From: an uncultured bacterium
GTDB taxonomy: Bacteria > Patescibacteriota > Microgenomatia > UBA1400 > PJMF01
Direction: 5' to 3'
NCBI GenBank assembly: GCA_903842795.1
Contig: CAIMNJ010000013.1
Coordinates: 69,302 to 133,301, forward strand
DNA: 64,000 nt
The notes under the pieces are model-generated. The model worked only from the letters and a program-made list of their open reading frames with translations, was not told the origin of the DNA and searched no databases. The first letter of the stretch is position 1. Each line of letters starts with the position of its first letter. Made by a program: the position numbers and the translations under genes. Positions 31,375-63,172 of the stretch are shown here, one piece after another.

Positions 31375-31412
31375 GCACATTACTTTTCTTACTTTTTGGT
31401 CAAATCTACTGG

Positions 31413-31733
31413 TTATTCTTCCAGAGGTGGACCGCCGACAGGAAGTCGGTATTCGAGAGCCTTGGCGTATTCGTGATCGCGCTGGTCAATGGGATCACCC
31501 TCCAGCTCATAGCGTCTCCAGACCGACGTCAGTGTGGCGTCGTTCAGAAGCTGTCTGAGTCTGGGCTCATCTTCATTAAGCATGACTTCCGCGACAGCGC
31601 GCAGAGCAGTCACGGCATGAGATGAAGCGAGATTGAAGATCAGTTGGCGAATCGGAAGTCTCTCGATGCGATCCATGTCATCTGGTAAAAAATGACCGGT
31701 TTTGGGTTGATACGGCATAGTATGCCTCCTCAA
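31413..31733 (-). CDS. hypothetical protein encoded in a GC-rich patch
   Basis: ORF in a segment with visibly higher GC and different codon usage than the flanks. Confidence 0.4.
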   Translation of the reverse strand: MRRHTMPYQPKTGHFLPDDMDRIERLPIRQLIFNLASSHAVTALRAVAEVMLNEDEPRLRQLLNDATLTSVWRRYELEGDPIDQRDHEYAKALEYRLPVGGPPLEE

Positions 31734-32196
31734 AATTTGATTGGCTACCTGACACCCTTGCGAGTGTTGGTTGGCGCGCTCAATTTATGCCTCTTGCACA
31801 TTTGTAAACAAAAAGTACTGCAAGAAAATAGACTGAGCGCGCCAAACAAAATAGCCAAAAGCAAAAAGTTTTAATGTGCGTAAATGATTTAGTTCAAATC
31901 ATCGCCGCGATTGGCAATTTTTAGAAAATAAATCACGGGAATTATATCAAAATATATCAGTCGAGTCAAAATTATAGGCTTTTGTTATGGATCTGCCAGC
32001 TCAAGAAATTCAAATCGCTCGCGAACACAGCACCTACTCCTGGTTTTCTTTCGAAGAGGCTTTGGCAAAATTACATTTTGAGAGTAACAAAATTGCTATA
32101 ACTGAATTGAATAATGAGTTATTAATTTCTCTTTAATCATAAAAATCTTGTAAAAATTTTGATGTATTGTGATATAATATCGTTTTTATTAAATAA

Positions 32197-33009
32197 TTGC
32201 GTTTAATGTCAATTATTGAAGAAGGACGCTCTAGCAGAGAGAATAGATCATTCTCTGTGGATGCTCCAGCAATGTTAGATAAATTGCTGACTGAGCTTTC
32301 TCAATTGGGGCAAATTAAAGGAATTGGGTTTGATGTTTTTGGCACCATTTTAAATGGTTCACTCAATCGCTTTGATCTTAGTGCATTTTTATCTAATTGC
32401 GTCGCAACTTATTACAAGTTCAAAACAGGTAAAACATTTTCAGAAGAAGAAGCTTTAAGTCTCTATTTGGAATGTAGAGAATCATTAAAGGATAATCGTT
32501 CTCCATTGTTAATTGGAGAAGATAATATTCCAGCCAAAGAACAAGAAATACAAGAGATTGTTGTTCTAGAAGCAATTGCTAAATTACTCCAATTAGACAG
32601 CCCAGATGATTTGATTTCCAATGTGCAGAGTCAGTGGTTGCTGTCTGATTTACAACATACAAAAGCAATTGATGGGATGTTGGATTTGGTAAAAAAATCT
32701 GTAATTCTATTTGGTAGAGATCGTGTTTCTGTTTTTTCAAATCATTCTTTTAGTCGTGAGCATTTATTGGCTTTATTGAGAAAAAATCAATATTTATCAG
32801 AGTCTATGCTAAGTGAAAAAAATGTATTTTTATCGAGTGATTTTGGTATAAAGAAATTTGGAGTTGGTCTTAGAAAGCCCAATCAACTTGCATTTAGAGA
32901 ATTTTCTGCACAAATGTTACTAAAGCCACAAGAAGTTGCTTTTATTGGTGATAGTAAGCATGATTCTATTTTTGCTACCAACTCTGGTGGCGTGGGAATT
33001 TTAGTATGA
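32197..33009 (+). CDS. hypothetical protein, HAD-like
   Basis: IGFDVFGTIL motif-I-like and C-terminal IGDSKHD motif-IV-like. Confidence 0.4.
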   Translation: MRLMSIIEEGRSSRENRSFSVDAPAMLDKLLTELSQLGQIKGIGFDVFGTILNGSLNRFDLSAFLSNCVATYYKFKTGKTFSEEEALSLYLECRESLKDNRSPLLIGEDNIPAKEQEIQEIVVLEAIAKLLQLDSPDDLISNVQSQWLLSDLQHTKAIDGMLDLVKKSVILFGRDRVSVFSNHSFSREHLLALLRKNQYLSESMLSEKNVFLSSDFGIKKFGVGLRKPNQLAFREFSAQMLLKPQEVAFIGDSKHDSIFATNSGGVGILV

Positions 33010-33395
33010 AATTAGAATCTATAAAAAATCCAAGCTTATTTTCAGAAAATTATCAGTATTACAGGGTCTATTTTACGGCAATGCTCAATAGTCTATTCGG
33101 AAAATTATTTTCTGCTAATTTAATTGAAAGAAAACAAAGTTTGTCTTTGGAGCAGGCTATTTATAAGCTAAGAGATCCTCGTACTAGTTCTCTACACATA
33201 ACACCTTTGTCTGAAACTGAAGGTAAAAAAAGATATTCAACAATTATTGAGCCATTATCTGGTTTTCATAAAGATGCTTGGTTGTTAGATTTGTTGCTTG
33301 TTGCTGATGAGACGTATCTTCTAGAATTGTTGGATATAAATAATTCAGTAGTTTGGAGTGAAAAATGTTCTATAAAAAAGGAAAATAAATTATAA
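33006..33395 (+). CDS. hypothetical protein
   Basis: ORF overlapping the upstream stop by 4 nt (operon-like coupling). Confidence 0.35.
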   Translation: MKLESIKNPSLFSENYQYYRVYFTAMLNSLFGKLFSANLIERKQSLSLEQAIYKLRDPRTSSLHITPLSETEGKKRYSTIIEPLSGFHKDAWLLDLLLVADETYLLELLDINNSVVWSEKCSIKKENKL

Positions 33396-33409
33396 ATTAT
33401 ATAAATCTT

Positions 33410-34531: not shown

Positions 34532-34545
34532 TTTAAAATTTAAAT

Positions 34546-35784: not shown

Positions 35785-35857
35785 AAATCAACTTTCAGCC
35801 AAAAAAATTGAAACATGGCTTATAATTTGATATAATAAGACATATTATACATCAAAT

Positions 35858-38136: not shown

Positions 38137-38168
38137 AAAAGCCCCGCTCTTGCGAGCGGGGCTTTCTT
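38137..38168. terminator. GC-rich hairpin terminator (aaaagccccgctc-ttgcga-gcggggctttc) between convergent genes
   Basis: Perfect 9-bp inverted repeat. Confidence 0.7.
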
Positions 38169-38194
38169 TAAAACAGATATTGATTGGATGATGG

Positions 38195-38716
38195 TTAGTT
38201 GCCGGGGATGGCAGTGGGCTTCGGGGCAGGATCAATGTCCATGATGCGACAATAATCGAACTCCCAAATTTCCACGCATTTGCCGGTTTGGGTACTGTTG
38301 GTTTCGTTGATGGCGCACACTGGCTCAAAGTCCGCAGTGCAGGCAAAAGTGACGGTGTCGCCGGGAATCAAACCCATGACCTTGCGATCAGTGGTTTTGA
38401 TCACGATCGTGTCGCCAGGCTGTGCAAAATCCACAGCAGGGTCCACAGATCCGAGCAAACCGCGCAAAATGCCCTTGCCATCTTCCCAGTATCGTCCGCT
38501 GACGCTACCGACGCCATTGATCGAAGAGCCAGAAACGTAGGCGTGACCCACGGTGTAGCTCTCCAGATCTTGTTCCATCGTTAATTTGATGGTGTAGACG
38601 TTGGGGTCAACTTCAGAGGTGATGGTGACGCCAGTGTCGGTCTGCTGGGTGGGCGCACAAGCAACGAGCCCCAAAAGCCCCAAAAGCAACAAGGTATAGA
38701 ACATAACTTTTTTCAT
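38195..38716 (-). CDS. small secreted lipoprotein (lipobox LVAC) in a GC-rich patch
   Basis: MKKVMFYTLLLLGLLGLVAC signal with lipobox; GC clearly above the surroundings. Confidence 0.55.
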   Translation of the reverse strand: MKKVMFYTLLLLGLLGLVACAPTQQTDTGVTITSEVDPNVYTIKLTMEQDLESYTVGHAYVSGSSINGVGSVSGRYWEDGKGILRGLLGSVDPAVDFAQPGDTIVIKTTDRKVMGLIPGDTVTFACTADFEPVCAINETNSTQTGKCVEIWEFDYCRIMDIDPAPKPTAIPGN

Positions 38717-39000
38717 CTTACTTCTCCGTACAGACAGGTTACCTGATTTTTACAAACCAGGCGCATGAGTCTATTTTCTTGCGATAGCTCACACGGTCAA
38801 AAATTTACTTTTAAAGCAAATTTCTAACCGTGTGAGCCAAGACTCAAATCTAGAGTAGGGAAAAGAATATCTGTTGTTAAAGATCAGCTGATAAGAATTT
38901 AGCTTGTGTGCTCGCGATGAGCTCGTAGCATAGAAATATCAGCAAGATAACTTATATTATAGGATACTTTTGCCAAAATTGCAAGTCTAAGTAAAGTTTT

Positions 39001-39313: not shown

Positions 39314-40615
39314 ATGAAAAAGTTTGCTATTTTTGGTCGTTCTTCTTTTGCCACTAAGATTATTTTGCCAATGGTAATAACGATCTTAATTTTTGGATCA
39401 CTTACTGCTTTATTGGTGGCACGTTTGGTTTACAACCAATTGCTTAATAAAGAAAAAAATCAATTGTCTATAGTGGCTATGGAGCAAGCTCACGAGTCAT
39501 CGATTGTTTTATCTAGAACTCAGGTGGTAATTGATCAAATTGCGATTTTGCCAGAGACATTAGACTATTTGTCATCTGCTAAACCAAAAATTCAAGACGA
39601 AAATTTACTTGATCTTTTTAATGATTTCAATGTTGGTAAGAGTTTTTCATCTATTTATTTGCTAGATGCTTCTGGATCTGCTGTTGTTTCTACTGATCCT
39701 AAATTTATTGGACAAAATTACTCTTTTCGTCAATATTTTAAACAAAGCATGGATGGCAAAAGAGGTTTTGACGTTGCTGTAGGGGTAACCACTGGCATGC
39801 TTGGTCATTATTTATCTGCTCCAGTTATAGTCGAAGGTCAGGTAAAAGGTGTTTTGGTGGGCAAAATGGACCCAAATCTTTTATTGGCAGAAATAGATAC
39901 TAATGAAAAAGAGGAGAGTTCTTATCTTGGTTTAGAGCGTTTTATGACAGATGAATATGGAGTAATTGTTTTTTCTGGAGAAGAAGATCGGCTTTATGCG
40001 AGCTTGGGAGTTTTGTCTGAAAGTTTGTTGAATGCGGAGATGAGGAAAAAGAGATATGCAAAGGAAGAATTAATGCAGCTTCAATATCAAAAGGAAATGG
40101 ATGCAGTTTTGCAGCAACAAGAATTCACCCAGAGAGAATTTCTTGACGAACTAGATCAAGAAAGAGAGATTGTAACTTTAGCTAAAGTTGGAGGTTACCC
40201 CCTCTATGTTGTTATGGAAATGAATCTACGTCAGATCAATAACTCCGTTATTCAAGTGATTTCATTAATTGGTGCAGTAGTGGTTTTTGCTGCTTTATTT
40301 ACGGCTTTGGTGGTGGCTGGCTTGGTTACTTTGTGGCTAAAACCACTTAAGAAAATGCGCCAGATAGCAATGAATGTTGCTGCTGGGAATTTTAGTGAGC
40401 GCATTGATAATTTAGGCGATGATGAATTGGGTGATCTTGGTAGATCATTTAATGAAATGGCAAATTCTTTGGTAATAGCTAAAGAGAACGTTGAGGAGCA
40501 GGTGCGTGGTCGCACAGAAGAATTAACCAGGTTAAATAAATTTATGATTGGTCGTGAACTTAAGATGGCTGAACTAAAAAAACAAATCAATGAGGTGAAA
40601 AATGAAAAAAAATAA
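39314..40615 (+). CDS. Cache-like periplasmic sensor + HAMP domain protein lacking an output domain
   Basis: TM, about 280-aa extracytoplasmic region, second TM, HAMP (LKKMRQIAMNVAAGNFSERIDNLGDDELGDLGRSFNEMANSL), ends in a short coiled coil. Confidence 0.6.
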   Translation: MKKFAIFGRSSFATKIILPMVITILIFGSLTALLVARLVYNQLLNKEKNQLSIVAMEQAHESSIVLSRTQVVIDQIAILPETLDYLSSAKPKIQDENLLDLFNDFNVGKSFSSIYLLDASGSAVVSTDPKFIGQNYSFRQYFKQSMDGKRGFDVAVGVTTGMLGHYLSAPVIVEGQVKGVLVGKMDPNLLLAEIDTNEKEESSYLGLERFMTDEYGVIVFSGEEDRLYASLGVLSESLLNAEMRKKRYAKEELMQLQYQKEMDAVLQQQEFTQREFLDELDQEREIVTLAKVGGYPLYVVMEMNLRQINNSVIQVISLIGAVVVFAALFTALVVAGLVTLWLKPLKKMRQIAMNVAAGNFSERIDNLGDDELGDLGRSFNEMANSLVIAKENVEEQVRGRTEELTRLNKFMIGRELKMAELKKQINEVKNEKK

Positions 40616-42834
40616 ATTTTCAATCCCATTATTTGTAGAGGTAACTTTTTTTATAATTGCGGTGATTATTTTTAATTATCAGGCATTTCAATGGATTAAA
40701 AATAGCGAAATTCAAAATTGGCAATTATTCGCACAGAATGTGGTGGCAGGTCTCAATCCTAAACATATTGAAGAAATGAGAGGTGAAGTGAGCGATAGAG
40801 ATCAACCTAATTTTATTTATGTTAAAGATCAGTTACATAGAGCAATGGAAGTTGGCAAAGTTAACAAGATTCAATGGCTTTATTTATTGCGTGTTGATGG
40901 TAAAAAAGTAACTTTTATCAATGATTCAATCCTTAAGGGTGAGCCAGATTATACTGATCCTGGTGAAAGGTATATTGATTATCCTTATGCTGTTTTGCTT
41001 GCTCAGGAAACCAAAAAAGTGCAAATTGTTAGTTCTTATACTGATGAGTGGGGAACTTACACTTCTGTTTTTGTACCAATTTTAGATTGGAATACTTCTA
41101 AAGTTGTGGGAATTCTTGGAGTTGATATAGACGTAAACATTTATCGTAAAACTATTGCTCAAAAAATGGTTTGGCCAATTACGATTACTATTGCTGCCAC
41201 TTGGCTATTGATAGTACTGATTAGGCAGTTTAACAATCAAAAGATTTTGAAGGAAAATGAATCTTTATTCCACGTTCTAACCGATGGTGTTTTGGATGCT
41301 ATGGTTATTGTTGATGGTTTTGGAAAAATTGTTTTATGGAATAAAGCAGCGGAAAGTCTATTTAAGTTTAATAAGAGCGAAGTGATAAATAAAGATTTTA
41401 TAGGAACCATTTTCCCTAAGAATGAAAAGATTGATGTGGATAATCAAAAAATAAAAGATTTGCTTGAAATTTTTAAAAATGAAAAAAATCTTACCAAAAA
41501 TGAAGTTATAGAATTAAAAGTTTATGATAAAAATATGACTGATTTTGAAGCAGAGATTTCAATTTCATCAGTAAGATTAAATTCCCAATTACATACAGTC
41601 AGTGTAATTCGCGATGTTAGTGAGAAAAAAAGAAGAAATGACGAAATTTTGCTTAAAAATCAAGAAATTAACGATCAAGCAAAAGCAATTCTCAATATTC
41701 TAGATGATGTTAATCAAGAGAAAGATAAAGTTAAAAAACAAGCTGAAGATTTAAAAAAATTTGAAGCAGCAGTTAATCAATCAAATGAAATGATGGTTTT
41801 TTCTGATGTAAATGGTACAGTTTTGTGGGGTAATCCAGCTATTGAGAAGGATGACAGGATTTTCTTTGAATGAGGTTTTACGAGTCAAGGCAGGCTCACT
41901 TTGGGGTGGTTTGATGGATAAGAAGTATTATGAAAAGCTTTGGCACACTATCAAAGATGAGAAAAAAGTTTTTACAGACGTAATTCAAAATCATCGTAAG
42001 AATGGTGAATTGTTTACTTCCACAATTAATATTTATCCATTGTTGGATGAAGATGGTAATTCTAACATTTTTGTAGCCACGCAAAGAGATATTACTAGAG
42101 AAATTGAAATTGATCGTATGAAAACTGACTTTATTTCTTTAGCCTCTCATCAATTGCGTACGCCACTTTCAGGGATGAAATGGTTTTTGGAAATGCTTCT
42201 TGGTGGCGATATGGGCAAGTTAAGTAAAGAACAGCACGATGCAATTGAAAACATTGATAAATCAAATGAGAGAATGATTGCTTTGGTAGCTTCTTTGCTT
42301 AATATTTCTCGCATTGAGTCTGGTCGTATCATAGTTGATCCTGAACCAACAGATTTGGTTGCCTTAGCTCAGGGCGTAATTGATGAATTGAAGATCAAAT
42401 ACGATGACAAAAAACAATCTTTAATTATTAGCGCTGATAAAAATTTGCCAAAAATCAACTTAGATCCAAAATTAGTTAGACAAGTTTTCTTAAACTTGCT
42501 TACCAATGCTAATAAATATACTCAAGAAAAAGGTGAGGTTATTATCTTTATTTCTCAAAAAGATCAAGATGTTTTGGTGCAGGTTTCTGATGATGGTTAT
42601 GGTATTCCAGAACAAGAACAGCGAAAAATTTTCGAAAGGTTTTATCGTGCCAGCAATGTGGTTAAAAAAGAAACTGATGGCACTGGACTTGGATTGTATT
42701 TGGTAAAAGCAATTGTTGAATCTTCTGGTGGAAAGATTTGGTTTAAGAGTCAAGTAGATAAAGGCACCAGCTTTTGGTTTACTTTTCCACTTAAAGGTGT
42801 CAAAGCCAAAAAAGGAGAGGTCTCTTTGAGTTAA
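40602..42834 (+). pseudogene. multi-domain sensor histidine kinase (Cache-like-TM-PAS-PAS-HisKA-HATPase) interrupted by a +1 frameshift near 41848-41853; ORFs 40602..41873 and 41812..42834
   Basis: PAS sequence reads continuously across frames (...NGTVLWGNPAIEK|MTGFSLNEVLRVKAGSLWGG...) if one G in aaggatg is removed; H-box SLASHQLRTPLSGM, G-boxes DDGYGI, GTGLGLYLV in the second ORF. Confidence 0.55.
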
Positions 42835-43593: not shown

Positions 43594-43594
43594 T

Positions 43595-45259
43595 ATGAAC
43601 AAAGATACTGCCCTGTACGACAACCTATTGGCAATGGGAGTGTTGGACAAAAAACTACTTGATGATTGTAAAGATGAGGCTATTTCTTCTAGTAAGAGTT
43701 TGGCAGAGATTTTGGAAAACAGAGACTTAGTTAGTGATGAAAATTTGGGCAAATTAGCAGCAGATTTTTATCAGCTACCATTTCTGAATTTGGCAGAAAT
43801 TAAGTTGGAAAGAGAATTAGTAAACAAAATCCCCAAGGCCTATGCTCAGGCTAGAAAATGCATGGTTATTGGCAGGCATGATGATGCTTTGTTGGTGGCT
43901 ATTTCCAAGCCAGAAGATAAAGATTTATTTGAAGAATTAAGTGTGGTTCTTGGCAAAGTTGAGTATGGTTACACTACAGAGAGAAATATAGTTAAATCAC
44001 TGCGTGTTTATGATGCCAATCCTCAAGCTATGTTTGAGGAAATGATGAAAACAACTTTAAGTGAAGCTAAAACCGGCCAAAATGATCCTCCAATTATTAA
44101 AATAGTTGAGAAAATTTTAGTTTATGGATATGAGCAAGGTGCTTCTGATATTCATATTGAGCCAACAGAAGAAGTGACTCATGTTCGCTATCGTGTTGAT
44201 GGCTTACTAAATGATGTTTTAACTATTCCCAAAGAATTGCATGAAAAGATTGTTACTAGAATCAAGGTGATGGCTCATATGCGCACTGATGAGCAGCATA
44301 GTGCTCAAGATGGTAAGTTAAATTTTGTGACTGAGGTGGAAAAAGTGGATGTTAGAGTTTCTATTGTGCCTATTATTGAGGGAGAAAATGTAGTTTTACG
44401 TTTACTTTCTGCCCAATCTAGACAATATTCTTTACTCGATCTTGGTCTTAATAAAGATGCAGCTAAAAAGATTGAAGAAGCAATTAAAAATCCTCACGGC
44501 ATGATTCTAACCACTGGTCCAACCGGTTCTGGTAAAACTACCACTCTTTACTCTTTGTTGAAGCGTTTAAATGTTCGTGGTGTGCACATTATGACCATTG
44601 AGGATCCAGTGGAATATGTGATTGCTGGAGTCAATCAGATTCAGGTGAGTGATGCCAATAATTTAACTTTTGCAGAGGGATTACGCACCATTGTTCGCCA
44701 AGATCCAAACATTATCCTTGTGGGTGAAATTCGTGATGATGAGGCAGCTGATATTGCTGTGAATGCAGCCATGACTGGACATTTGGTTTTATCCACTTTG
44801 CATACCAATGATGCTGCCACCGCTATACCAAGACTTTTGGATATGAAAGTTGAGCCATTTTTGATTGCTAGTACTGTCAATGTAATTGTTGCTCAGCGTT
44901 TGGTTCGCAAACTTTGTAATGTTTGCCGTGTTAGTGAAGAAGTAACAGTCGAAGAATTAAAAAAGAAGTGGGGTGAGAAACTAATTGAAAGGCATTTTGA
45001 TCAGGAAAAAGTTAGGCTTTATACAGCCAAAGGTTGTGAAATTTGTGGAGGTAGTGGCTACAAAGGTAGAGTAGGTATTTTTGAGGTGCTCAAAATGAAT
45101 GATGTTTTGCGTGCTGCCATAATTGATAAAAAAGACGCTAGTGAAATTAGCAAAATTGCCGTAGAAGCAGGCATGCAAAGTATGTTTGAAGACGGCATCG
45201 ATAAAGTTAAAACTGGCGTCACTTCTCTAGAAGAAGTCCTAAGAGTAACAATGGAATAA
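43595..45259 (+). CDS. pilB: type IV pilus assembly ATPase PilB (GspE family)
   Basis: N-terminal GSPII_E_N-like region, Walker A GPTGSGKTTTLYS, Asp box, His box LSTLHTND, C-terminal tetracysteine CNVC...CEICGGSG. Confidence 0.85.
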   Translation: MNKDTALYDNLLAMGVLDKKLLDDCKDEAISSSKSLAEILENRDLVSDENLGKLAADFYQLPFLNLAEIKLERELVNKIPKAYAQARKCMVIGRHDDALLVAISKPEDKDLFEELSVVLGKVEYGYTTERNIVKSLRVYDANPQAMFEEMMKTTLSEAKTGQNDPPIIKIVEKILVYGYEQGASDIHIEPTEEVTHVRYRVDGLLNDVLTIPKELHEKIVTRIKVMAHMRTDEQHSAQDGKLNFVTEVEKVDVRVSIVPIIEGENVVLRLLSAQSRQYSLLDLGLNKDAAKKIEEAIKNPHGMILTTGPTGSGKTTTLYSLLKRLNVRGVHIMTIEDPVEYVIAGVNQIQVSDANNLTFAEGLRTIVRQDPNIILVGEIRDDEAADIAVNAAMTGHLVLSTLHTNDAATAIPRLLDMKVEPFLIASTVNVIVAQRLVRKLCNVCRVSEEVTVEELKKKWGEKLIERHFDQEKVRLYTAKGCEICGGSGYKGRVGIFEVLKMNDVLRAAIIDKKDASEISKIAVEAGMQSMFEDGIDKVKTGVTSLEEVLRVTME

Positions 45260-45262
45260 AGA

Positions 45263-46318: not shown

Positions 46319-46321
46319 AAT

Positions 46322-46474
46322 ATGAAAAAAACAAAAACTCAAAGCAAGTCGAAGGCAAAAGCCCCAGCTTGCAATTGTTGGTGTTGTAGAGTGGTTCCAA
46401 AACCATTGGATATCTTTATTTTGCTTGGTGCATCTATTTTAATTGTTTATGTTTTTATCAAAATGGCAGTCTAG
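46322..46474 (+). CDS. small (50 aa) Cys-rich membrane protein, hypothetical
   Basis: Strong SD (ggaggttaaaat-ATG), CNCWCC cluster followed by one TM helix; too short for the ORF track. Confidence 0.3.
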   Translation: MKKTKTQSKSKAKAPACNCWCCRVVPKPLDIFILLGASILIVYVFIKMAV

Positions 46475-49561: not shown

Positions 49562-49605
49562 TAGACAAAGTTCTGTAAAAATGCCATACTAAAAAAAGCT
49601 TAAAT

Positions 49606-50592
49606 ATGAGTAAAACTGTCCTTTACATCTCTAAAGCTGATTTAGTGGTTGTTTATCCTGGTAAGGGTAAAAATTGGTCTACCAAAACTTGGACTTGGAA
49701 CGAAAAAAACATCAACAATATTCTCAAAGAACTTAAGGCAATAGATCATCACTTGATTATTTTATTGGCCCCAGATATCTCTTATTATAAAAAAATTGAA
49801 AGTGAGCAAGTGCTTAATAGAGCTTTGATTACTGAACAGTTGCCTAAATTTTTTCCTGAAACTTTGTCTCCAAGGCAATGGGACTGGAAAAAACTAGATG
49901 AAAAGACTTATTTATTAGAAGCAGTTACAACTAGAGTTTGGCAGTGGATTGAAGCAGCAGAAAAAATTGGTATCATCTTGGACAAAATTACTACTGCTAA
50001 ATATGTTGCAGAAAGAGATCAAGTTGATTTGGCCAATGCACATGAGTTATTTAAGGCAGTTTTAGCCGAAGCTAGGGATCGAGGGGCAGATGAGAATGTT
50101 TTAGACATCACTTTTAAGCAACCAAAAAAGAGTGCTAAACCAGCATTTATGCTGATTCTGTTTGTCATGATTATGTCTTTGTCTTTTTTCATTTTGTATT
50201 CTTATTTCAATAAACAAAAACTCAAAGAAGAAGAAAGATTGAAACAAGCAGCTTTGACTCTGATTACTCCTTCACCAACTCCAGAAATTACCGAAGCTCC
50301 AAAACCAGAAGATTTTAATTTAAGGTTAAGAGATAATAGCGGGATTGTAGGTTACGCTAGTAAATCAGCTTCTCTTTTTGATGGAGCAGGTTTTTCCAAT
50401 GTAGATATTATCGTTGCTACCAATGCTGCAGAAAAAAAAGTTAGCAAAGAAACTATTGTTCACGTTAAAACAGCATTGCCAGAAAATATCAAAAATATAA
50501 TCGACAAGCTTTTGCCAGAAAAGAAACCAGTTTACCAGATTGATCTGACTGATAATGATGTAGTTGATATATTAATTATTCTTGGTTCATAA
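49606..50592 (+). CDS. hypothetical pilus-assembly-associated bitopic protein (PilM/PilN-like?)
   Basis: Cytoplasmic N-domain, central TM (FMLILFVMIMSLSFFILY), Pro/Thr linker and extracytoplasmic C-domain; operon context only. Confidence 0.35.
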   Translation: MSKTVLYISKADLVVVYPGKGKNWSTKTWTWNEKNINNILKELKAIDHHLIILLAPDISYYKKIESEQVLNRALITEQLPKFFPETLSPRQWDWKKLDEKTYLLEAVTTRVWQWIEAAEKIGIILDKITTAKYVAERDQVDLANAHELFKAVLAEARDRGADENVLDITFKQPKKSAKPAFMLILFVMIMSLSFFILYSYFNKQKLKEEERLKQAALTLITPSPTPEITEAPKPEDFNLRLRDNSGIVGYASKSASLFDGAGFSNVDIIVATNAAEKKVSKETIVHVKTALPENIKNIIDKLLPEKKPVYQIDLTDNDVVDILIILGS

Positions 50593-50613
50593 TGGAATCG
50601 GAAAGGAGGCTTA

Positions 50614-51075
50614 ATGACTAAAAACCAAAAAGGATTTACTTTAATTGAGCTTTTGGTGGTTATCTCTATCGTTGCTCTGCTGTCAGTAACTGTCTTTGTT
50701 GCTCTAGATCCAGTTAAGAGATTTGCGGATGCCCGTAACTCTCGTCGCTGGTCAGATGTAAACAATATGATTACTGCTATTCATGAGTATATTGTAGACA
50801 ACAAAGGTGATTTACCGACTGGTTTGACTACTGGTATGAGTGCTACCCAACTTGGAACTTGTGTGTCAGGTGGTTCTACTCTTTGTTCTGGTGCAGCAGC
50901 AGCTTGTGTCAATATTGCTACACCACTCAATAAATACCTAAAGTCGTTGCCATTTGATGCTAAAACCGGCTCAGCGGCAACCACAGCTTACAAAGTTGAT
51001 GTCGATGCTAATAACATCGTTACTATCACTGCTTGTAGTGCTGAAAATGGCGAAACTATCTCAGTTTCTCGCTAA
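50614..51075 (+). CDS. type IV major pilin (prepilin)
   Basis: MTKNQKG|FTLIELLVVISIVALLS canonical class III signal with Glu5; Cys pair near the C-terminus. Confidence 0.85.
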   Translation: MTKNQKGFTLIELLVVISIVALLSVTVFVALDPVKRFADARNSRRWSDVNNMITAIHEYIVDNKGDLPTGLTTGMSATQLGTCVSGGSTLCSGAAAACVNIATPLNKYLKSLPFDAKTGSAATTAYKVDVDANNIVTITACSAENGETISVSR

Positions 51076-52989: not shown

Positions 52990-53026
52990 AGGCCTTCTGA
53001 GAGTGTCGCGGAAACTCAGAAGGCCT
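52990..53026. terminator. long GC-rich hairpin (aggccttctgag-N13-ctcagaaggcct)
   Basis: Perfect 12-bp inverted repeat immediately downstream (minus strand) of the small lipoprotein ORF. Confidence 0.6.
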
Positions 53027-53063
53027 AGGGTTTATCACAACAATTTAGAACACTTGCTTACGG

Positions 53064-53195
53064 TTATGGGATGACGTAAATCGATCCCCGGACGATATCC
53101 TCAAACTTCGAGGAATAATCCGCTTGCAGATCGCCTCCGCCACAAGCCGCCAAAAGAAGCGACGCCATGACGAGGACAAATAATACTTTTTTCAT
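53064..53195 (-). CDS. small (43 aa) lipoprotein-like ORF in a GC-rich patch
   Basis: MKKVLFVLVMASLLLAACGGG lipobox signal; below the ORF-track length cut-off. Confidence 0.35.
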   Translation of the reverse strand: MKKVLFVLVMASLLLAACGGGDLQADYSSKFEDIVRGSIYVIP

Positions 53196-53335
53196 GTTTC
53201 TCCAAAAGGTTGCGACACCAATCTATTTTCTTGAGATAAGAACGCAGATTGGCACCGCAATCAAATGGAATCAAGCAAGTGTTAAGGTGATGATCCCTTG
53301 ACAACACGGATTCATTCTGCTATTCTAGGCTAAGA

Positions 53336-54229
53336 ATGCAAAAACTTAGCCTTAAAACCTTTCTGCGAAAATATCCTCATAATGAAGCCTGTTTGGAAGA
53401 GATAAAGCGTTTTGTTTTCCCTGATGGTATTCATTGCCCTAAATGTCAAAAAATCACCAATTTCTATAAACTCGACGGTCGCATGGCATATTCGTGTGGT
53501 GTTTGCCGTACGCAAGTATATCCTCTCAAAGGTACGATATTTGAAAAAAGCACGACCGATCTTCGTACCTGGTTTTACGTTATGTGGGTTATGAGTAAAA
53601 CAAGAAGTGGAATAAGTGCCAGACAAATACAACGAGAGGTTGGAGTCACGTATAAATGTGCCTTCCGCATGTGTCATCAGATTAGAAAACTCATGGCTGA
53701 TGACGGAGAACCAATGGACGGAATAAACGAGAGTGATGAAACTTATATTGGTGGAAAGGGAAAGAATAAACGCTATGTGCCAGACTATAACGAAAAACCA
53801 AAAGAAGTCGTCATGGGCATTCTCCAACGCGGTGGCAAAATTCACCTACGGCATATCCCCAATACTGGTAAGTGGACGATACTAAAGCAAATAAAAGAAA
53901 ACCTTTCAACAGATGCCTCAATCTATACTGATCAACTAGGAGCTTATCAACAACTTAACAGGTATGGTTATAATCACTCATTCGTGAACCACAAAGAAAC
54001 ATACGTCATTAAAGGAACTGATATTCACACCAATTCCATTGAAGGATTTTGGAGTATTTTCAAACGAGGAGTAACTGGCGTTTACACTCATATTTCTCCC
54101 AAATATCTCCAACACTATGCTGATGAATATGGGTTCCGGTATGGCAATAGAAAAGCTGATGATATGTTCACCGAAATGCTTAGGCAGATTGCTTTGAAGA
54201 AGGCTTTGCAGGTCTCACCGCTTTCTTGA
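53336..54229 (+). mobile_element. IS1595-family (ISXO2-like) transposase gene; IS boundaries not resolved
   Basis: N-terminal zinc ribbon CPKCQ...CGVC and HTH, DDE_Tnp_IS1595-like catalytic region (DETYIGG...). Confidence 0.8.
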
Positions 54230-54484
54230 GTAGCTTCACAAAATCTTTCTTATTTATTGTTTGATTTTCTTTCAAGCGTTTTTGTACTAGTGCGTTTTTC
54301 TCCAACTTCTTTTTACTCATATTCTGAGTATACCAGACTAAGAGTATTGGTAAATTTTGGCCAGAGTAAACAACCATGCTATACTCCAAAAATAGTGTAA
54401 GCGTGTTTACACTAAAAACGCCATATTTTAAGGCTAAATAACAAATATTCCTGTCCTTATTATTCTTTATAAATAAAGAGGTGT

Positions 54485-55264
54485 ATGAAACTAAAACCCC
54501 GACAGGAAGAAATACTTATCTATCTCTATCGCTTTCGTTTCCTTAATCGTACTCAAATTCAAAAACTCCTGTGTCACAAACACTTCAACCGCATTATTGT
54601 CTGGCTCAACCAATTAAACACTTATGGATATATTCGGAAATACTACAATCCCAAAACAGTGACTATTGCTGCAATATATTCCTTAGATTCAATGGGAAGA
54701 AAGTACTTGTTAGAGAAATCAAAGGAAGAAGGAAGTCGGATACAGCCAGAATTACTCAATCGTATTTGGAGAGAACATACCTTATCTGAGCAATTTCGTA
54801 TTCACTGTCTATTTCTTGCTGATATCTATCTATCGCTATCGGATTTGGTTACACAAAATAAAGCAGTTTTGTATTTTTTTACCAAAACAGACTTACATGG
54901 TCATGATTATTTACCCGATCCACGCCCAGATGCGTATTTTGCAATTAAGGAAGCGAAAAGGAAAACGAAACGTTATTTTCTAGATATCTTCGACCCGCTG
55001 CCACCTCGTATGATTCTACGGCGACGGGTTAAGCAGTACGTAGACTATTTTGACGAAAATGACTGGCAGGAAGCGACTAATCATCCATTTCCCCAAATTA
55101 TCCTAATTTCCCCAGATGAACGGACTAAGCGATATTTAAATAGATACATCAAGACTAAGATGGAATACACCTCAGACATTGAGTTTTATCTTTCGACTTG
55201 GGAACCAATACGGACAAAAGGAATGAAGAAAGAGGTGTTTGAGAAAGTTGAGGAATCTGAATGA
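54485..55264 (+). CDS. replication-relaxation (Replic_Relax) family protein
   Basis: N-terminal EEILIYLYRFRFLNRTQIQKLL signature of this plasmid/ICE-associated family. Confidence 0.6.
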   Translation: MKLKPRQEEILIYLYRFRFLNRTQIQKLLCHKHFNRIIVWLNQLNTYGYIRKYYNPKTVTIAAIYSLDSMGRKYLLEKSKEEGSRIQPELLNRIWREHTLSEQFRIHCLFLADIYLSLSDLVTQNKAVLYFFTKTDLHGHDYLPDPRPDAYFAIKEAKRKTKRYFLDIFDPLPPRMILRRRVKQYVDYFDENDWQEATNHPFPQIILISPDERTKRYLNRYIKTKMEYTSDIEFYLSTWEPIRTKGMKKEVFEKVEESE

Positions 55265-56513: not shown

Positions 56514-56821
56514 ATATTTCAGCTTCTAGTATCTTCCATTATAGGTGATCGCTTTAATTCTTGAATTTTTTTAGGTAGATGATAGGTTCCAATCGATTAT
56601 TGATTCCCGTGTCTTGAAGGGAGCACCACCAGTGTTAAAGAGCTGTAATCGGCTGTTTCCATACAGAAAGACAGCTTAAGTCTTACGTTCGAAAACACCG
56701 AAATTATAGCAGAAAATAGTCCATTTGTCAAAAATTATAGGACTATTTTAAAATATAAACAATCTAGAAATAAAGTTATTTTTTAAAAAAAGTAAACATA
56801 CCGCACCGGCAATTTGCTTCG

Positions 56822-56854
56822 TTGTTGGGCGCCTGCGTGAAGCAGGCGCCCAAC
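56822..56854. terminator. GC-rich hairpin (ttgggcgcctgc-gtga-agcaggcgcccaa)
   Basis: Perfect inverted repeat 3' of the minus-strand lipoprotein gene. Confidence 0.65.
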
Positions 56855-56867
56855 ATTTCTTCAATTC

Positions 56868-57224
56868 TTATCCTCCTTTGGTTTGTTCGCGCCATTCATC
56901 AAACAGGTTCATTTCGCCCTGTTCGTTGATCGTCTCGGTGCCGATCTTATCGGTGCCGTAGAAGAACATGATCTCGCCAGCTACATCCTGAACGCAGAGA
57001 TTATCTCCCTGGCCATAAGAGCAGGTCCAGTTGCCATCGCCTTCATAAGTGAAGGTGACGCTGACTTCGCCATTGGTGACGGTTTTCACGTCGCCTTTGC
57101 TGAAATTCAGGACATCGCCATTGGCTTTGGGGGTTGGGGCGCAAGCCGCCAAAACGAGGATAATGGTGAATGCCACAAGGATGGCAATCACAGTAGAACG
57201 GTTTGGGTTTCTCATTGGAAACAC
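56868..57224 (-). CDS. small secreted lipoprotein (lipobox LAAC) in a GC-rich patch
   Basis: MRNPNRSTVIAILVAFTIILVLAAC signal; GC-rich codons. Confidence 0.5.
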   Translation of the reverse strand: MFPMRNPNRSTVIAILVAFTIILVLAACAPTPKANGDVLNFSKGDVKTVTNGEVSVTFTYEGDGNWTCSYGQGDNLCVQDVAGEIMFFYGTDKIGTETINEQGEMNLFDEWREQTKGG

Positions 57225-57402
57225 CTCCTAAAGTTTTGAGCAAATTTATTCAATTCACTCTTTTTTGCATCACGATTATATTTTCATGAGGCAGAGAAGA
57301 GTGAATTTTGGTGCGGTATGTGAAAGATCAGCTATCATTCTTATCTTGGAAACGTCTTGTTTCCGACAAAAATAATAACCTATAACATTATATCATGGGA
57401 TA

Positions 57403-60032: not shown

Positions 60033-60040
60033 CATTTTTT

Positions 60041-60832: not shown

Positions 60833-60997
60833 AATAGTAGATACTATCCTATAGTATTGACAAATTGATATATTATGATACAATATGCTTCTTGTTTGAA
60901 ATATTTTGAGTGGTCAAAGCGACGACTCATATAAAATTTTTCAAACATTTTTAAACGCACGTTAACATGGGAAATATAGTCTAGCTAGTTCATTGAT

Positions 60998-61038
60998 AGC
61001 TCCGACTTGTGGTGGATCATCCACCCCAGATCGGAGCT
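60998..61038. promoter_or_regulatory. nested inverted repeats (outer agctccga/tcggagct; inner 15-bp palindrome ggtggatcatccacc) upstream of ORF 61063
   Basis: Seen directly; GGGGAG RBS and the ATG follow 20 nt downstream. Confidence 0.4.
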
Positions 61039-61062
61039 ATTGTTTCTCCTTTCGGGGAGTAA

Positions 61063-61374
61063 ATGAACATGCTTACACTAGTAATTAGGAGAAGTACGAT
61101 GAAAACTGCAGATTTGGAACTCTATCTTGATACCCTGTTGACCGGTGTCGAAACCGGCAATATGGAGGCGCTCCTGGAAAAAGTCCAGGCAGTCACCGCC
61201 AATGAGCACCCCAGTGATCATGAGTATGTTGAGAACCCCGACCTGCCGGGCACTTGCTTGCATTGCGGATGGATTGAGGCTGACACCCAATCCTCATGCG
61301 GATGCCCCAAGAACCTGCGCCAGCCCTCCGAAAGTCACTTTCCCATGTTAACGGCTTTCTTTAATTTATTATAA
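61063..61374 (+). CDS. hypothetical Cys/His-containing protein in a GC-rich patch
   Basis: ORF with GGGGAG RBS; CLHCGW...CGCP motif. Confidence 0.35.
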   Translation: MNMLTLVIRRSTMKTADLELYLDTLLTGVETGNMEALLEKVQAVTANEHPSDHEYVENPDLPGTCLHCGWIEADTQSSCGCPKNLRQPSESHFPMLTAFFNLL

Positions 61375-61426
61375 ATTTATCCTATAACATTGACATTTTC
61401 TAATTATAAATATATAATAAGCACTC

Positions 61427-62116
61427 ATGAAAACTAATATGAAAAAAATCGCTTCTTATTTTTTGATCATTACTGGTCTATTTTTGTTTTTTACCAATTT
61501 GGTTGATGCCAAAGAATGTACTACTGTTTACGGTGGTGGCGAAGTTTGCGAAACTGGCGAATTGAGTTTGGACAAAAAAGTTTTTAATCCTAAAGCCAAT
61601 GAATATTGGGATAATATTGATAGCAAAGACTATACTTTTGCTCCCAATGAGGAAGTAAAATTTAGCCTTCGTATCAAGAATATTTCTAATATTAAGGTCG
61701 ATAGTGCTCGCATTAATGATGATTTTGATCGTCTTGATGATTATATGGTTTTTGTCGGTAGTGACAAAGGTGACTATCGTGCTGAGGTAACTGACCACAA
61801 AGTCAAATTTGAATTTGGTGGTCTTGAACCTGGTGCCGAAGCTACTGTTTATTTTGTAGCTCGCTTCAAGCTTGAAAATCAATTGCCAGTTGGTACTACT
61901 TGTATTACCAATGCCGCTCACGCTTATTCTCATATTGATGCTGCCAGCGATAGTGATTTTGCTACCTTTTGTGTCAAAGCTAATAATGGCAAAATTGTTA
62001 CCACCAAAACTCCAGACACTGGTTTTGCTTTAAGTAACATTTTAGTGATTGAGGCTTTAGCTTTTGCTGGTCTCGGTTCTATTGCTTGGATCAAAGCTAA
62101 ATCTTTGACCAAATAA
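61427..62116 (+). CDS. cell-surface protein with DUF11-like domain and C-terminal sorting-signal-like tail (candidate sortase substrate)
   Basis: Sec signal, beta-rich domain, C-terminus KTPDTG-FALSNILVIEALAFAGLGSIAWI-KAKSLTK = motif + hydrophobic + basic tail. Confidence 0.55.
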   Translation: MKTNMKKIASYFLIITGLFLFFTNLVDAKECTTVYGGGEVCETGELSLDKKVFNPKANEYWDNIDSKDYTFAPNEEVKFSLRIKNISNIKVDSARINDDFDRLDDYMVFVGSDKGDYRAEVTDHKVKFEFGGLEPGAEATVYFVARFKLENQLPVGTTCITNAAHAYSHIDAASDSDFATFCVKANNGKIVTTKTPDTGFALSNILVIEALAFAGLGSIAWIKAKSLTK

Positions 62117-62138
62117 TTTTATTATTTATTGAATCTTT

Positions 62139-62170
62139 AACCCCGTCTCACAAGGACGGGGTTTTTGTTT
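62139..62170 (+). terminator. rho-independent terminator (aaccccgtc-tcacaag-gacggggtt + T tract)
   Basis: Perfect stem followed by tttttgtttgtttt. Confidence 0.75.
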
Positions 62171-62590
62171 GTTTTAAGAGTATTTACTTGAAGTGAATCT
62201 TGTGGTTTTTAGTCCTATAATCTTGACAAAAGAGACTATAAGTGCTATAATTTGACCTAGTTTAAAAATTAAAATCTTTTATGCAGTTCTCTGGTAGAGA
62301 ACAGGCTTTGGAATTTTTTGCTTTTTCCATTTTTGGATTGCAGCCTCTGAAGCCTTTTCTCTGCTCGAGAGAGCAGAATGGTATCTCTATGAGATATTGT
62401 CTCCAAGCGATAGCCGCTTGGTAGATGGTAATTAATCTCAAATGGGATGCAATTTAACAATTTGGAAGAGTATCGGCATTAAGTCCAGCTTTTTTGTCTG
62501 TCACTTTTTTGGTAGATAAAAAAGCTGGTCTTTAGTGCCGAAAGCGGCAAAAGACGAGTAATCTTAATCGCATGAAAGGAGAAAACTACC

Positions 62591-63172
62591 ATGCGTAAAT
62601 TCTTGTTCTTCGTAAGTCTGTTCGCCGTGATGAGCTTCGTGCTCGTCGCCTGTGGAGGCAATCAGCCGTCCACCTCTCCGCTCAGTGCCGAGGATCTGGT
62701 GGCAACGCTAACCGCGTATCCCACCAATACCTCTGTGCCCACCAGCACTCCGCTTCCTCCTACCAACACTCCGTTACCCACAGCGACATCTGTGCGCGAT
62801 ACCGGCATGCAGCTCAATACTGCGGCTGACATTCGCGTCCTTTTCGTCAAAGTGAACGGCTGGGTGAGCGGTGGCGAGGGTCAGTGGGTGGCTGGCGCTC
62901 AAGGCTCTTTGCGCAATGACCTTATCTTGAAGGACCTGCCCGAAGGGGCAACCTTTGAGTTTGAGTGTGTGCAATACCACACTCTTGGCGGCACCGTTGT
63001 CGTCAAAAAGGTCTGCCAGGGCGCAACCATCAGTTACAGCGAGATTATTCCCGCTGGATCAGTCGGCACGATGTGGCTCGATTGGTCGATTGCCCGCGAG
63101 GGTGATCAGCTGAAAGAGGGCTTTATCAATAAGCCCTGCGTCTGCCAATCTGGCGATTGCCGCAAACCGTAG
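62591..63172 (+). CDS. secreted lipoprotein (lipobox LVAC) with Pro/Thr-rich linker, in a GC-rich patch
   Basis: MRKFLFFVSLFAVMSFVLVACGG signal; GGAG RBS; visibly high GC. Confidence 0.5.
   Translation: MRKFLFFVSLFAVMSFVLVACGGNQPSTSPLSAEDLVATLTAYPTNTSVPTSTPLPPTNTPLPTATSVRDTGMQLNTAADIRVLFVKVNGWVSGGEGQWVAGAQGSLRNDLILKDLPEGATFEFECVQYHTLGGTVVVKKVCQGATISYSEIIPAGSVGTMWLDWSIAREGDQLKEGFINKPCVCQSGDCRKP

Follow-up and report, generated by a model that had tools for sequence, protein, structure and literature searches.

The window analysed here is a stretch of 64,000 nucleotides from an uncultured bacterium (contig CAIMNJ010000013.1 of assembly GCA_903842795.1, positions 69,302 to 133,301 of the forward strand). 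It contains six short GC-rich open reading frames (ORFs) among AT-rich genes. They were singled out in an initial annotation and are designated c1 to c6 in window order. We describe them as putative single-gene expression modules and discuss why their codons are GC-rich. The numbers L004-L038 denote related contigs or genomes compared with the window. The mechanistic statements below are based on sequence and predicted folding.

The GC content of the window is 37.0%. The six ORFs have a GC content of 0.48-0.57 and a third-position GC content (GC3) of 0.52-0.66; the values for the remaining 63 ORFs are 0.366±0.042 (max 0.44) and 0.302±0.063 (max 0.43), and the GC3 z-scores of the six against these 63 are 3.5-5.6. 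In 200-bp windows the GC peaks at the six patches are 0.485 to 0.61; peaks at 11.7-12.1 kb and 47.4-47.7 kb reach 0.515. The windowed GC and the GC3 scores thus confirm the six patches proposed initially; their placement holds, but the starts of c1, c4 and c5 had to be moved to the ATG codons at 31718, 57215 and 61099. The c1 (101 aa) and c5 (91 aa) products occur as exact sequences in public assemblies. The c4 start was deduced from the Shine-Dalgarno (SD) sequence TAGGAGGTG and the alignment of homologues; the exact 115-aa product was not returned by the search. The elevation of GC is limited to the ORF and its 3' hairpin: the leaders (150 nt upstream) have 0.36-0.44 GC, and the sequence beyond the hairpin and in the flanks has 0.25-0.36.

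The neighbouring genes are ordinary chromosomal ones (HAD hydrolases, GNAT, radical SAM, a two-component system, a type IV pilus operon, SpoU methylase, EamA, sortase). Since the relatives of the SpoU gene are found in Candidatus Pacebacteria, Microgenomatus and Patescibacteria metagenome-assembled genomes (MAGs) at 54-72% identity, the host is considered a low-GC bacterium belonging to the Candidate Phyla Radiation (CPR), similar to Microgenomates/Pacebacteria. The exact c6 protein was read in 8 contigs from several samples, always between the 229-aa surface-protein gene and a 454-aa glycosyltransferase gene. The exact c1 protein was read in 6 contigs with identical neighbours, in two of which its 420-nt leader is also the same. 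The c6 and c1 contigs come from several samples and assemblers. The abrupt change of composition is the sole argument for an assembly chimera or contamination; the chance of either is negligible, since identical junctions recur in these 8 and 6 independently assembled contigs, and orthologous junctions are present in other genomes. The recurrence of the junctions therefore rules out an artefact. In these genes dN is well below dS, and the families have conserved Cys and motif columns. The six are real, lineage-restricted genes.

The initial annotation ascribed lipoprotein signals to four of the products. We looked for an N-terminal signal with a Lys/Arg n-region and a hydrophobic h-region ending in a lipobox [LVI][ASTVI][GAS]C, and found it in the same number: c2 (...LGLVAC), c3 (...LLAAC), c4 (...LVLAAC) and c6 (...FVLVAC). 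In the family alignments of c2 and c6 the lipobox Cys does not vary, profile scans of the six proteins gave weak lipoprotein-signal matches, and the mature chain begins with CAPT in both c2 and c4, as had also been noted. Neither a lipobox nor a signal peptide was detected in c1 and c5. By their sequence features, c2, c3, c4 and c6 are predicted to be small Cys-containing lipoproteins, and c1 and c5 small cytoplasmic, non-secreted proteins.

Scans of the six proteins against Pfam, PHROGs and NCBIfam yielded matches at the level of the signal peptide at most, and tblastn of all six against the window returned self matches only. The families are mutually unrelated and have no paralogues in the window. 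A word-indexed search of 5.8 billion proteins gave 7 matches for c6 and 18 for c2; c1 retrieved only itself. With phmmer against 1.84 billion representatives, c4 has about 10 clusters, all with lipoboxes, c5 about 16 clusters with a shared Cys motif, and c1 about 40 clusters. The few named family members are assigned to Dojkabacteria or to a 1.08-Mb MAG contig, which is probably mislabelled. All the families are small and were seen in uncultivated CPR-like genomes only. The AlphaFold model of the c2 lipoprotein (38195-38716, minus strand; predicted local distance difference test score, pLDDT, 83) is all-beta with four invariant Cys; compared with solved structures, it has a weak OB-fold-like resemblance only.

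Each of the six ORFs evidently belongs to a self-contained monocistronic expression module. The parts follow a common order: a sigma-70 promoter, a structured leader with a conserved box, a hairpin, the SD sequence, the GC-rich ORF and a 3' hairpin (Table 1). The promoters are near-consensus sigma-70 ones and are often composite, TCCTATAAT-N-TTGACA-N17-TATAAT; in c1, c5 and c6 the form is (T/G)CCTATA(A/G)T-N-TTGAC(A/T)-N16-17-TA(T/C)AAT. The composite 16-mer core has only 4 sites in the window, which are those of c1, c5, c6 and the AT-rich 229-aa surface-protein gene. The leaders are 100-330 nt long, and each has a box of the (C)TTTAACA type, referred to below as the TTAACA-type box (GCACATTAAAAC in c1, GCTGATCTTTAACA in c2, TCACCTTAACA in c3, GCTGATCTTTCACA in c4, GCACGTTAACA in c5, TGCAATTTAACA in c6). 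A hairpin with a stem of 11-22 bp lies 13-36 nt downstream of the box, and its sequence is different in every unit. The stretch after the c2 box, UUCUUUUCCC, pairs with the SD sequence GGAGAAG around the central hairpin, and this pairing is kept in the window, L014 and L015. In the long-range helix of the c6 leader, CUUUU:AAAAG of the window is replaced by the compensatory CUCCU:AGGAG in L010.

The exact 12-mer CAAGAAAATAGA has 3 copies in the 64 kb, against 0.025 expected, and is found only in the leaders of c1, c2 and c3; the c1 copy (31821-31832, plus strand) is oriented opposite to its gene. It was considered as a promoter part and rejected, as there is no consistent -35 element. The CTTTAACA box was likewise rejected as a sigma-70 -35 element or a sigma-B-like site, because the downstream spacing and hexamers do not fit. 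In the Rfam scan only tRNAs reached the gathering score, and permissive scans of the c6 and L009 leaders gave chance hairpin matches.

The initial annotation treated stem-loops as caps bounding each cassette. Five perfect GC-rich hairpins of 10-14 bp do exist (the terminators of c1, c2 and c3, the GC hairpin of c4 and the one upstream of c6 in Table 1). They are intrinsic-terminator-like elements 3' of genes and not caps: the hairpin upstream of c6 belongs to the 229-aa gene, and c5 has no GC-rich 3' hairpin. Between c3 and c4 lie an IS1595-family transposase gene and a Replic_Relax (relaxase-like) gene (53336-55264, plus strand). The IS1595 insertion sequence (IS) takes up the expected position of the c3 promoter, so c3 (43 aa) may be a module that has been disrupted or reduced to a remnant. 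In the orphan platform downstream of c4, no ORF was found before the end of the convergent gene at 56513; the platform may represent a cassette site that has been emptied, or a gene for a small RNA.

Low-GC relatives carry further GC-rich genes (GC3 0.52-0.56) at L015 3005-4240, L014 14388-14912 and L010 9018-9488, one of which encodes a Band_7/SPFH-domain lipoprotein. The promoter and box architecture of the three is the same, and their best leader-to-3' repeat scores are 23-25, in the upper control range. Since the architecture is shared by these genes, the pattern appears to be genome-wide in the lineage and not specific to the window.

In five of the six units (c2-c6), a leader segment at the box or directly after it is complementary to the 3' untranslated region (UTR), or to the last codons in c5. 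The local-alignment scores of these repeats are 24-32; for 62 control genes they are 19.5±2.2 with a maximum of 27 (Fisher p=3e-5). Among 21 units of the window and related genomes, 14 have their best repeat precisely at the box (p about 5e-6). Each cargo has a repeat sequence of its own, and both arms change together in the orthologues of c2 (ACAGATATT in the window, CAGATGC in L014, ACAGGTTTTAT in L015), c6 (window, L010, L013) and c4 (window, L007). Because of this complementarity, the whole transcript is predicted to close as a panhandle and to have an exceptional degree of structure. The predicted minimum free energy folds of the full c2 and c4 transcripts contain the panhandle, the internal hairpin, the masking of the SD sequence and the terminator together, with z=-10.3 and -10.6 against dinucleotide shuffles.

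The folding of the ORFs themselves was compared with synonymous-codon permutations that keep the protein, codon usage and GC3. The ORFs fold better than their shuffles by 10-34 kcal/mol in the window copies and by up to about 40 kcal/mol in orthologues. The z-scores are -2.8 to -4.5 for c1, c2, c4, c5 and c6 of the window and -1.5 to -8.2 for orthologues. The mean is -4.8 for the cassettes and -0.7 (range +2.3 to -3.6) for 17 control genes (Mann-Whitney p=4e-5). In a local variant with shuffling within 20-codon blocks, where about 10% of bases are changed, the z-scores of c2, c4 and c6 and of their orthologues remain at -3.9 to -6.4.

The modules evidently belong to the flexible part of the genome: whole units are gained, lost or moved, and their edges lie at the repeated promoter core or the box. 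The c5 module is present in the window and in the L033/34 lineage and absent from L010. It is flanked by the direct repeat TCCTATAGTATTGACA (60847) and TCCTATAACATTGACA (61380), and at the empty site of L010 a single copy, TCCTATAATATTGACA, is found. The reverse case is a 156-aa GC-rich gene of L010, which lies between two copies of ATCCTATAAT; the window has only one copy there. Relatives of c2 (61-77% identity) are found in at least five contexts (L014, L015/16, L031, L032 and the window), and in each of these the promoter, leader and terminator are homologous. The proposal of discrete single-gene units is thus supported in that they vary between relatives. Of the direct repeats that were to be looked for at the edges, examples were found at c5 and at the L010 gene. 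It is also true, as suggested, that the resident IS does not explain this variation: the IS1595 copy accounts for none of it. Pfam scans of essentially all ORFs of at least 70 aa found no tyrosine recombinase that could serve as an integrase; the recombinases found were a large serine recombinase (12776-14071) and the IS1595 DDE transposase only.

At least one conserved platform of promoter and leader carries cargo ORFs that are unrelated from one relative to another. In the interval from the 230-aa surface-protein gene to the glycosyltransferase gene, the relatives share the composite promoter and a leader of 350-650 nt. The cargo there is mutually unrelated and GC-enriched: c6, a 325-aa lipoprotein in L009 and a 420-aa secreted protein in L007; a further family has 339 aa in L005 and 230 aa in L004. 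The homology of the leaders stops at the TTAACA box, and the sequence just after it is cargo-specific and complementary to the cargo's own 3' UTR. The conserved leader has a covarying 16-bp long-range helix, GGCAGAGA..AGGUUUCUG with CAGARGCCU..UCUCUGC (columns 11/132 are AU in 7 and CG in 2, columns 12/131 GC in 7 and AU in 2). It also has a hairpin whose stems covary around a constant loop ACCAUUCC, and repeated hairpin-TTAACA modules behind the composite promoter. A pseudoknot is possibly formed, as the loop ACCAUUCC is complementary to the upstream GGGAAUGGC. No Rfam family matched this leader.

The GC-rich codon usage is old: it persists through saturated synonymous divergence in AT-rich genomes. 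In L010/L011, L033/L034, L012 and L013, c6 orthologues (74% and 45% identity) are found at the position that c6 has in the window, upstream of the same glycosyltransferase gene, and c6 is syntenic in 5 genomes. In L007 the c4 orthologue (46%) likewise sits downstream of SpoU; its leader is homologous, and it has the same repeat. The flanks are known for ten GC-rich family members; all of these come from contigs of 0.33-0.41 GC, and their own GC3 is 0.46-0.71 against 0.19-0.35 in their neighbours. Between window and L010, c6 has dS 0.73 and dN 0.13; for seven flanking genes dS is 0.9-5 and dN is 0.08-0.34. The divergence of c6 tracks that of the flanking glycosyltransferase gene, and c4 has co-diverged with its flanks. 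Between the c6 groups and among the c2 copies the proportion of synonymous differences (pS) is 0.65-0.78, i.e., saturated, and GC3 is still 0.56-0.71; across the c6 and c2 comparisons this GC3 is kept at pS of 0.47-0.78.

In most lineages the GC-rich usage also shows no net decay. The polarised synonymous changes in the window and L010 lineages are 7 GC>AT against 8 AT>GC (P=6e-4); the expectation, from the genome's own bias (GC3 about 0.29), is that about 80-85% would be GC>AT. This test is conservative, since a GC-rich outgroup biases the count towards GC>AT. The shift is mainly synonymous: compared with AT-rich c2 homologues, GC3 is raised by about 0.28, and GC1 and GC2 by about 0.05. At the third position, C3 is 0.39 and G3 is 0.23 (background 0.15 and 0.14). 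The coding strand prefers C over G on either DNA strand, which therefore points to an effect at the level of the transcript or translation. Chaperone and translation-factor genes are expected to be well expressed. In L015 (related locus) dnaK, grpE, nusA and infB have GC3 near 0.28, so the cassette codons are not the usual preferred codons of the lineage.

Distant c2 homologues (33-50% identity) in low-GC CPR contigs have a native GC3 of 0.27-0.38. Two c2 homologues come from GC-rich contigs (L027 and L038; 33-40% identity), where their composition is native. A neighbour-joining tree places the GC-rich c2 sequences in one monophyletic clade within the AT-rich CPR homologues and at a long distance from L027 and L038. 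Scans of viral contigs found only distant c2 relatives of native composition and no c6 relative, so no phage reservoir is evident.

Our preferred reading, to which we give an about even chance, is that these are swappable lineage-specific modules whose GC-rich codons would be maintained by selection on mRNA structure or stability, and not the result of recent transfer from high-GC organisms. We infer selection at the transcript level because the compositional boundary is sharp and limited to the ORF, C is preferred on the coding strand, the ORFs are over-structured, and the predicted transcript is closed with the SD sequence masked. Such selection would keep the codons GC-rich by favouring stable, RNase-resistant and translationally gated mRNAs; the partial masking of the SD sequence by the upstream anti-SD would provide the gating. 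Long-lived gated mRNAs would serve surface proteins in a cell with very few ribosomes and minimal expression capacity.

Several observations weigh against this interpretation. The excess of structure under 20-codon-block shuffles is weak in c1 (-1.9) and c5 (-1.2), and a control gene for a pilin (50614-51075) reaches z=-4.3 under the same shuffles. RNAalifold on five c2 ORFs found no conserved helices, with a covariation term of +4.8; the excess would therefore be a property of each sequence and not of a conserved fold, and conserved RNA structure within the c2 ORF is rejected. The 5'-3' repeat of c1 is not significant (score 19). The mismatched pairs of the repeats are of the A·C, U·U and U·C kinds and not G·U, which does not specifically favour RNA over DNA pairing. 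The branches of the c2 tree carry no support values. In L013 the GC3 of the c6 orthologue is 0.46, with 12 GC>AT against 6 AT>GC changes, so the trait decays in some lineages. The substitution counts are small, with saturated outgroups. GC1, GC2 and amino-acid usage are shifted as well, as a general GC pressure would produce. Finally, unsampled mid-GC CPR donors are conceivable: L009 and L007 share the leader type, and their codon usage correlates with that of the cassettes (r=0.57-0.68).

This last point leads to a different explanation, in which the modules evolve in Microgenomates of about 45-55% GC with the same promoters and leaders and are repeatedly transferred into low-GC relatives. 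Recombination would occur at the conserved promoter/leader and terminator, syntenic copies would be replaced allelically, and residence would be too short for amelioration. We consider it doubtful. The whole module does resemble DNA of a roughly 50% GC genome (leader 0.36-0.44, ORF 0.50-0.60), L009 and L007 carry the same platform with GC-rich lipoprotein cargo, and the correlation of relative synonymous codon usage with L009 is 0.68. The differing contexts of the c2 relatives, the cargo swapped at one locus and the shifted amino-acid usage agree with it too, and so does the 82% identity of c6 between L012 and L013, where the flanking glycosyltransferase genes are 70% identical. On the other hand, no mid-GC contig holds any of the ten GC-rich family members whose flanks are known, and the divergence of c6 and c4 is in line with that of their flanks. 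Outside the window's population no copy exceeds 77% identity (c2) or 74% (c6) among the 5.8 billion proteins, whereas donors should co-occur, and in L009 and L007, too, the GC3 of the cargo exceeds that of the host by 0.10-0.13. The correlation of codon usage with mid-GC relatives was rejected as a discriminator because it mostly reflects GC3; the GARP/FYMINK shift, which is modest, does not discriminate either. The older idea of recent import from high-GC donors (e.g., Chloroflexi or Actinobacteria), with the GC excess as an un-ameliorated scar, is the origin that the initial annotation proposed, and it fares much worse. It accounts for the atypical composition and codon usage, the patchy distribution and the IS and relaxase near c3 and c4. 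The c1 product is Arg-rich and Lys-poor (10 R, 2 K), and the PT-rich linker of c6 weakly resembles the N-terminus of a Roseiflexus lipoprotein, far below the cut-off. Yet the search for donor taxa among the 5.8 billion proteins found no high-GC homologue closer than 33-40% identity, the c2 clade is nested in AT-rich CPR homologues, and c6 and c4 are syntenic and co-diverged. The synonymous sites are saturated with no GC>AT excess, and the promoters and leaders are of the host type, being used by an AT-rich host gene as well. The import is thus very improbable.

The elevated GC might also come from GC-biased gene conversion at recombination hot spots, with the surface-protein modules, flanked by conserved promoter and terminator sequences, recombining frequently among strains and biased repair raising the local GC at all sites. 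An association of such conversion with recombination in bacteria has been described (PMC4450053). Here G- and C-ending codons, GC1 and GC2 are all raised, presence and absence at repeats are of a recombination type, and c6 is mildly incongruent with its flank. The rise of GC nevertheless ends sharply at the ORF and terminator, the leaders and the next gene some 125 bp away being host-like, and the bias of C over G at third positions follows the coding strand on either DNA strand. To our knowledge, a GC3 shift of 30-40 points far exceeds what has been reported for gene conversion in bacteria, and we regard the process as an improbable cause. Since repeats flank the ORFs, phase-variable invertible cassettes are formally possible; the box and the 3'-UTR repeat would be the recombination sites, and the ORF would flip relative to a fixed platform. 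The inverted repeats do enclose the entire ORF and share the core TTAACA/TGTTAA, surface lipoproteins are classic targets of phase variation, CAAGAAAATAGA at c1 is inverted relative to c2 and c3, and a serine recombinase is encoded in the window. But ON is the only orientation seen in all of about 21 units, in 11 independent contigs of c1 and c6 and in the orthologues, the repeats are short and imperfect and differ from module to module, and the only recombinase is at least 17 kb away at the edge of a tRNA-linked island, with none adjacent. We believe that inversion has very little chance of being the explanation. For c1 in particular it was rejected, as the leader is identical in two other assemblies and no flipped variant was found.

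We consider the modules a variant of accessory single-gene modules and of UTR-paired mRNAs. In organisation, their closest analogues are integron cassettes and small islets of horizontal gene transfer (HGT), although the defining features of both are lacking. Like integron cassettes, they are single-ORF units that vary between relatives, have structured repeats of changing sequence, and place unrelated cargo at one expression site. Unlike them, they have their own promoter and leader, no integrase or attI was found, they are dispersed over 32 kb and not arrayed, and the repeats flank the ORF with no 3' attC. HGT islets are also short patches of deviant composition and codon usage with a patchy distribution and surface-protein cargo. 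In the modules, by contrast, no donor lineage was found, the clade is nested in AT-rich homologues, the syntenic copies have co-diverged without a signal of amelioration, and the regulatory DNA is of the host type.

The vls locus of Borrelia and the variable lipoprotein loci of Mycoplasma are surface lipoprotein genes in an AT-rich reduced genome, and vls is markedly GC-richer than its genome and retains this bias. The modules differ from them in that no silent cassette arrays or paralogues were found in the window, and neither tandem repeats nor inversion variants were seen. Elements of the IS200/IS605 type are marked at the left junction by a short conserved motif, have a sub-terminal hairpin at either end and make no target duplication. 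The modules share these three features, but their hairpin sequences are not conserved between units, and no Y1 transposase was detected in the window.

Some bacterial mRNAs are regulated by pairing of the 5' UTR with the 3' UTR: icaR of Staphylococcus aureus (PMC3868564) and hbs of Bacillus subtilis (PMC5737220). By analogy, these interactions may be the closest functional counterparts of the predicted panhandle. In both cases part of the 3' UTR is complementary to the 5' leader of its own monocistronic mRNA near the ribosome-binding region, and the effects expected here would be on translation and RNase access. The modules differ in that the predicted pairing would close the whole transcript just upstream of the terminator. 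It recurs in a set of unrelated genes with a common box and is coupled to a GC-rich, over-structured coding sequence.

A joint reading, which we regard as rather unlikely, would be that of an undescribed CPR cassette-exchange system with a dedicated panhandle-mRNA mode of expression and a new large leader RNA. The platforms may end at a TTAACA-type junction, with unrelated cargo swapped in together with its own complementary 5' and 3' arms. The GC-rich over-structured mRNAs may serve a variable surface-lipoprotein repertoire for contact with a host or episymbiont, and the 350-650 nt leader upstream of the c6-type site may be a new large cis-regulatory RNA. In the searchable literature, no description of GC-rich panhandle-mRNA lipoprotein modules in CPR was found. 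CPR/Patescibacteria are ultra-small, mostly uncultured epibionts whose surface proteins probably mediate attachment to the host, and almost nothing is known of how these proteins are regulated or diversified. If the interpretation is true, deviant GC is no safe marker of foreign DNA in these genomes, as codon composition at specific genes would be kept some 30-35 points above the genomic GC3 over long periods. The debate on selection, gene conversion and mutation would then become directly testable in a simple system. The signature (promoter core, TTAACA box, 5'-3' arms and GC-rich ORF) could serve to catalogue the surface repertoire of Microgenomates in MAGs, and a candidate family of structured leaders absent from Rfam would be added.

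Table 1. Parts of the modules and of associated elements. Positions are those of the window unless a related contig is named; IR-L and IR-R are the left and right inverted repeats.
Unit	Feature	Position	Strand
c1	Module: promoter, leader, ORF, terminator	31349..31979	-
c1	Composite promoter, GCCTATAAT-T-TTGACT-N17-TATAAT	31941-31979	-
c1	Box, GCACATTAAAAC	31868-31879	-
c1	Leader hairpin, two arms	31834-31845 / 31771-31782	-
c1	SD, GAGGAGG	31725-31731	-
c1	ORF, 101 aa, R-rich, no signal peptide, ATG 31718	31413-31718	-
c1	IR-R, weak candidate	31375-31399	-
c1	Terminator hairpin, common to the convergent GIY-YIG gene	31349-31374	
c2	Module	38138..38984	-
c2	Promoter, TTGCAA-N17-TATAAT with TCCTATAAT	38956-38984	-
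c2	IR-L, including the CTTTAACA box	38866-38883	-
c2	Anti-SD, TTCTTTTCCC	38858-38867	-
c2	Leader hairpin	38787-38838	-
c2	12-mer CAAGAAAATAGA	38770-38781	-
c2	SD, GGAGAAG	38721-38727	-
c2	Lipoprotein ORF, 173 aa	38195-38716	-
c2	IR-R	38165-38181	-
c2	Terminator	38138-38165	-
c3	Module	52990..53290	-
c3	Box, TCACCTTAACA	53280-53290	-
c3	IR-L	53273-53285	-
c3	Leader hairpin, holding 12-mer CAAGAAAATAGA (53222-53233)	53210-53260	-
c3	Lipoprotein ORF, 43 aa	53064-53195	-
c3	IR-R	53045-53059	-
c3	Terminator	52990-53026	-
c4	Module	56796..57399	-
c4	-10 region, CCCATGATATAAT	57387-57399	-
c4	Box and IR-L, GCTGATCTTTCACATACCGCACC (IR-L proper 57310-57321)	57310-57332	-
c4	Leader hairpin	57254-57305	-
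c4	SD, TAGGAGGTG	57222-57230	-
c4	Lipoprotein ORF, 115 aa, ATG 57215	56868-57215	-
c4	GC hairpin	56823-56855	-
c4	IR-R, GGTGCGGTATGT, followed by a T-run	56796-56807	-
Orphan	Platform downstream of c4	56633..56742	-
Orphan	Composite promoter, TCCTATAAT-TT-TTGACA-N17-TATAAT (perfect TTGACA-17-TATAAT)	56703-56742	-
Orphan	Box, GCTCTTTAACA	56633-56643	-
c5	Module	60847..61395	+
c5	Composite promoter, TCCTATAGTATTGACA-N16-TACAAT	60847-60884	+
c5	IR-L with box, AAACGCACGTTAACATGGGAAA	60953-60974	+
c5	Leader hairpin	60996-61040	+
c5	ORF, 91 aa, Cys-rich, no signal peptide, ATG 61099	61099-61374	+
c5	IR-R, within the 3' end of the ORF (last codons)	61339-61358	+
c5	Right edge: direct repeat TCCTATAACATTGACA, the promoter of the next gene	61380-61395	+
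Upstream of c6	Terminator of the 229-aa surface-protein gene (61427-62116)	62139..62163	+
c6	Module	62213..63232	+
c6	Composite promoter, TCCTATAATCTTGACA-N17-TATAAT	62213-62251	+
c6	Long-range helix in the leader of about 330 nt	62293-62311 / 62347-62364	+
c6	IR-L with box, TTTAACAATTTGGAAGAG	62453-62470	+
c6	Hairpin in leader	62485-62528	+
c6	SD	62575-62582	+
c6	Lipoprotein ORF, 193 aa, PT-rich linker and Cys-rich domain	62591-63172	+
c6	IR-R	63190-63204	+
c6	Own 3' hairpin, imperfect	63205-63232	+
Conserved leader	Reduced window copy, 5' module lost	62213-62590	
Conserved leader	Copy in L010	9560-10003	
Conserved leader	Copy in L009	3012-3670	-
Conserved leader	Copy in L007	1489-2095	-
Conserved leader	Copy in L006	about 700-1300	-
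Conserved leader	Copy in L005	3139-3640	-
Conserved leader	Copy in L004	6543-7065	-
Conserved leader	Copy in L012	1-391	

The pilin gene used as a control lies in the type IV pilus operon (43595-51075, plus strand), which encodes a PilB-like ATPase, a PilC-like platform protein and three prepilin-type proteins and is preceded by two single-domain response regulator genes. The large serine recombinase gene (12776-14071, minus strand) belongs to the region 12295-26710. It follows tRNA-Arg(GCG) and tRNA-Ser(CGA), and after it comes a very AT-rich stretch, down to 23% GC at 14.7-15.0 kb, with genes for a ParB-methylase, type I/III restriction-modification, DUF2779 and an FtsK-like protein. From its gene content, the region looks like an integrated mobile or defence island at a tRNA. 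At 39314-42834 (plus strand), three consecutive overlapping ORFs (Cache+HAMP, PAS, and PAS+HisKA+HATPase) look like one sensor histidine kinase gene split by two frameshifts, which could reflect a pseudogene, a sequencing error or a programmed shift.

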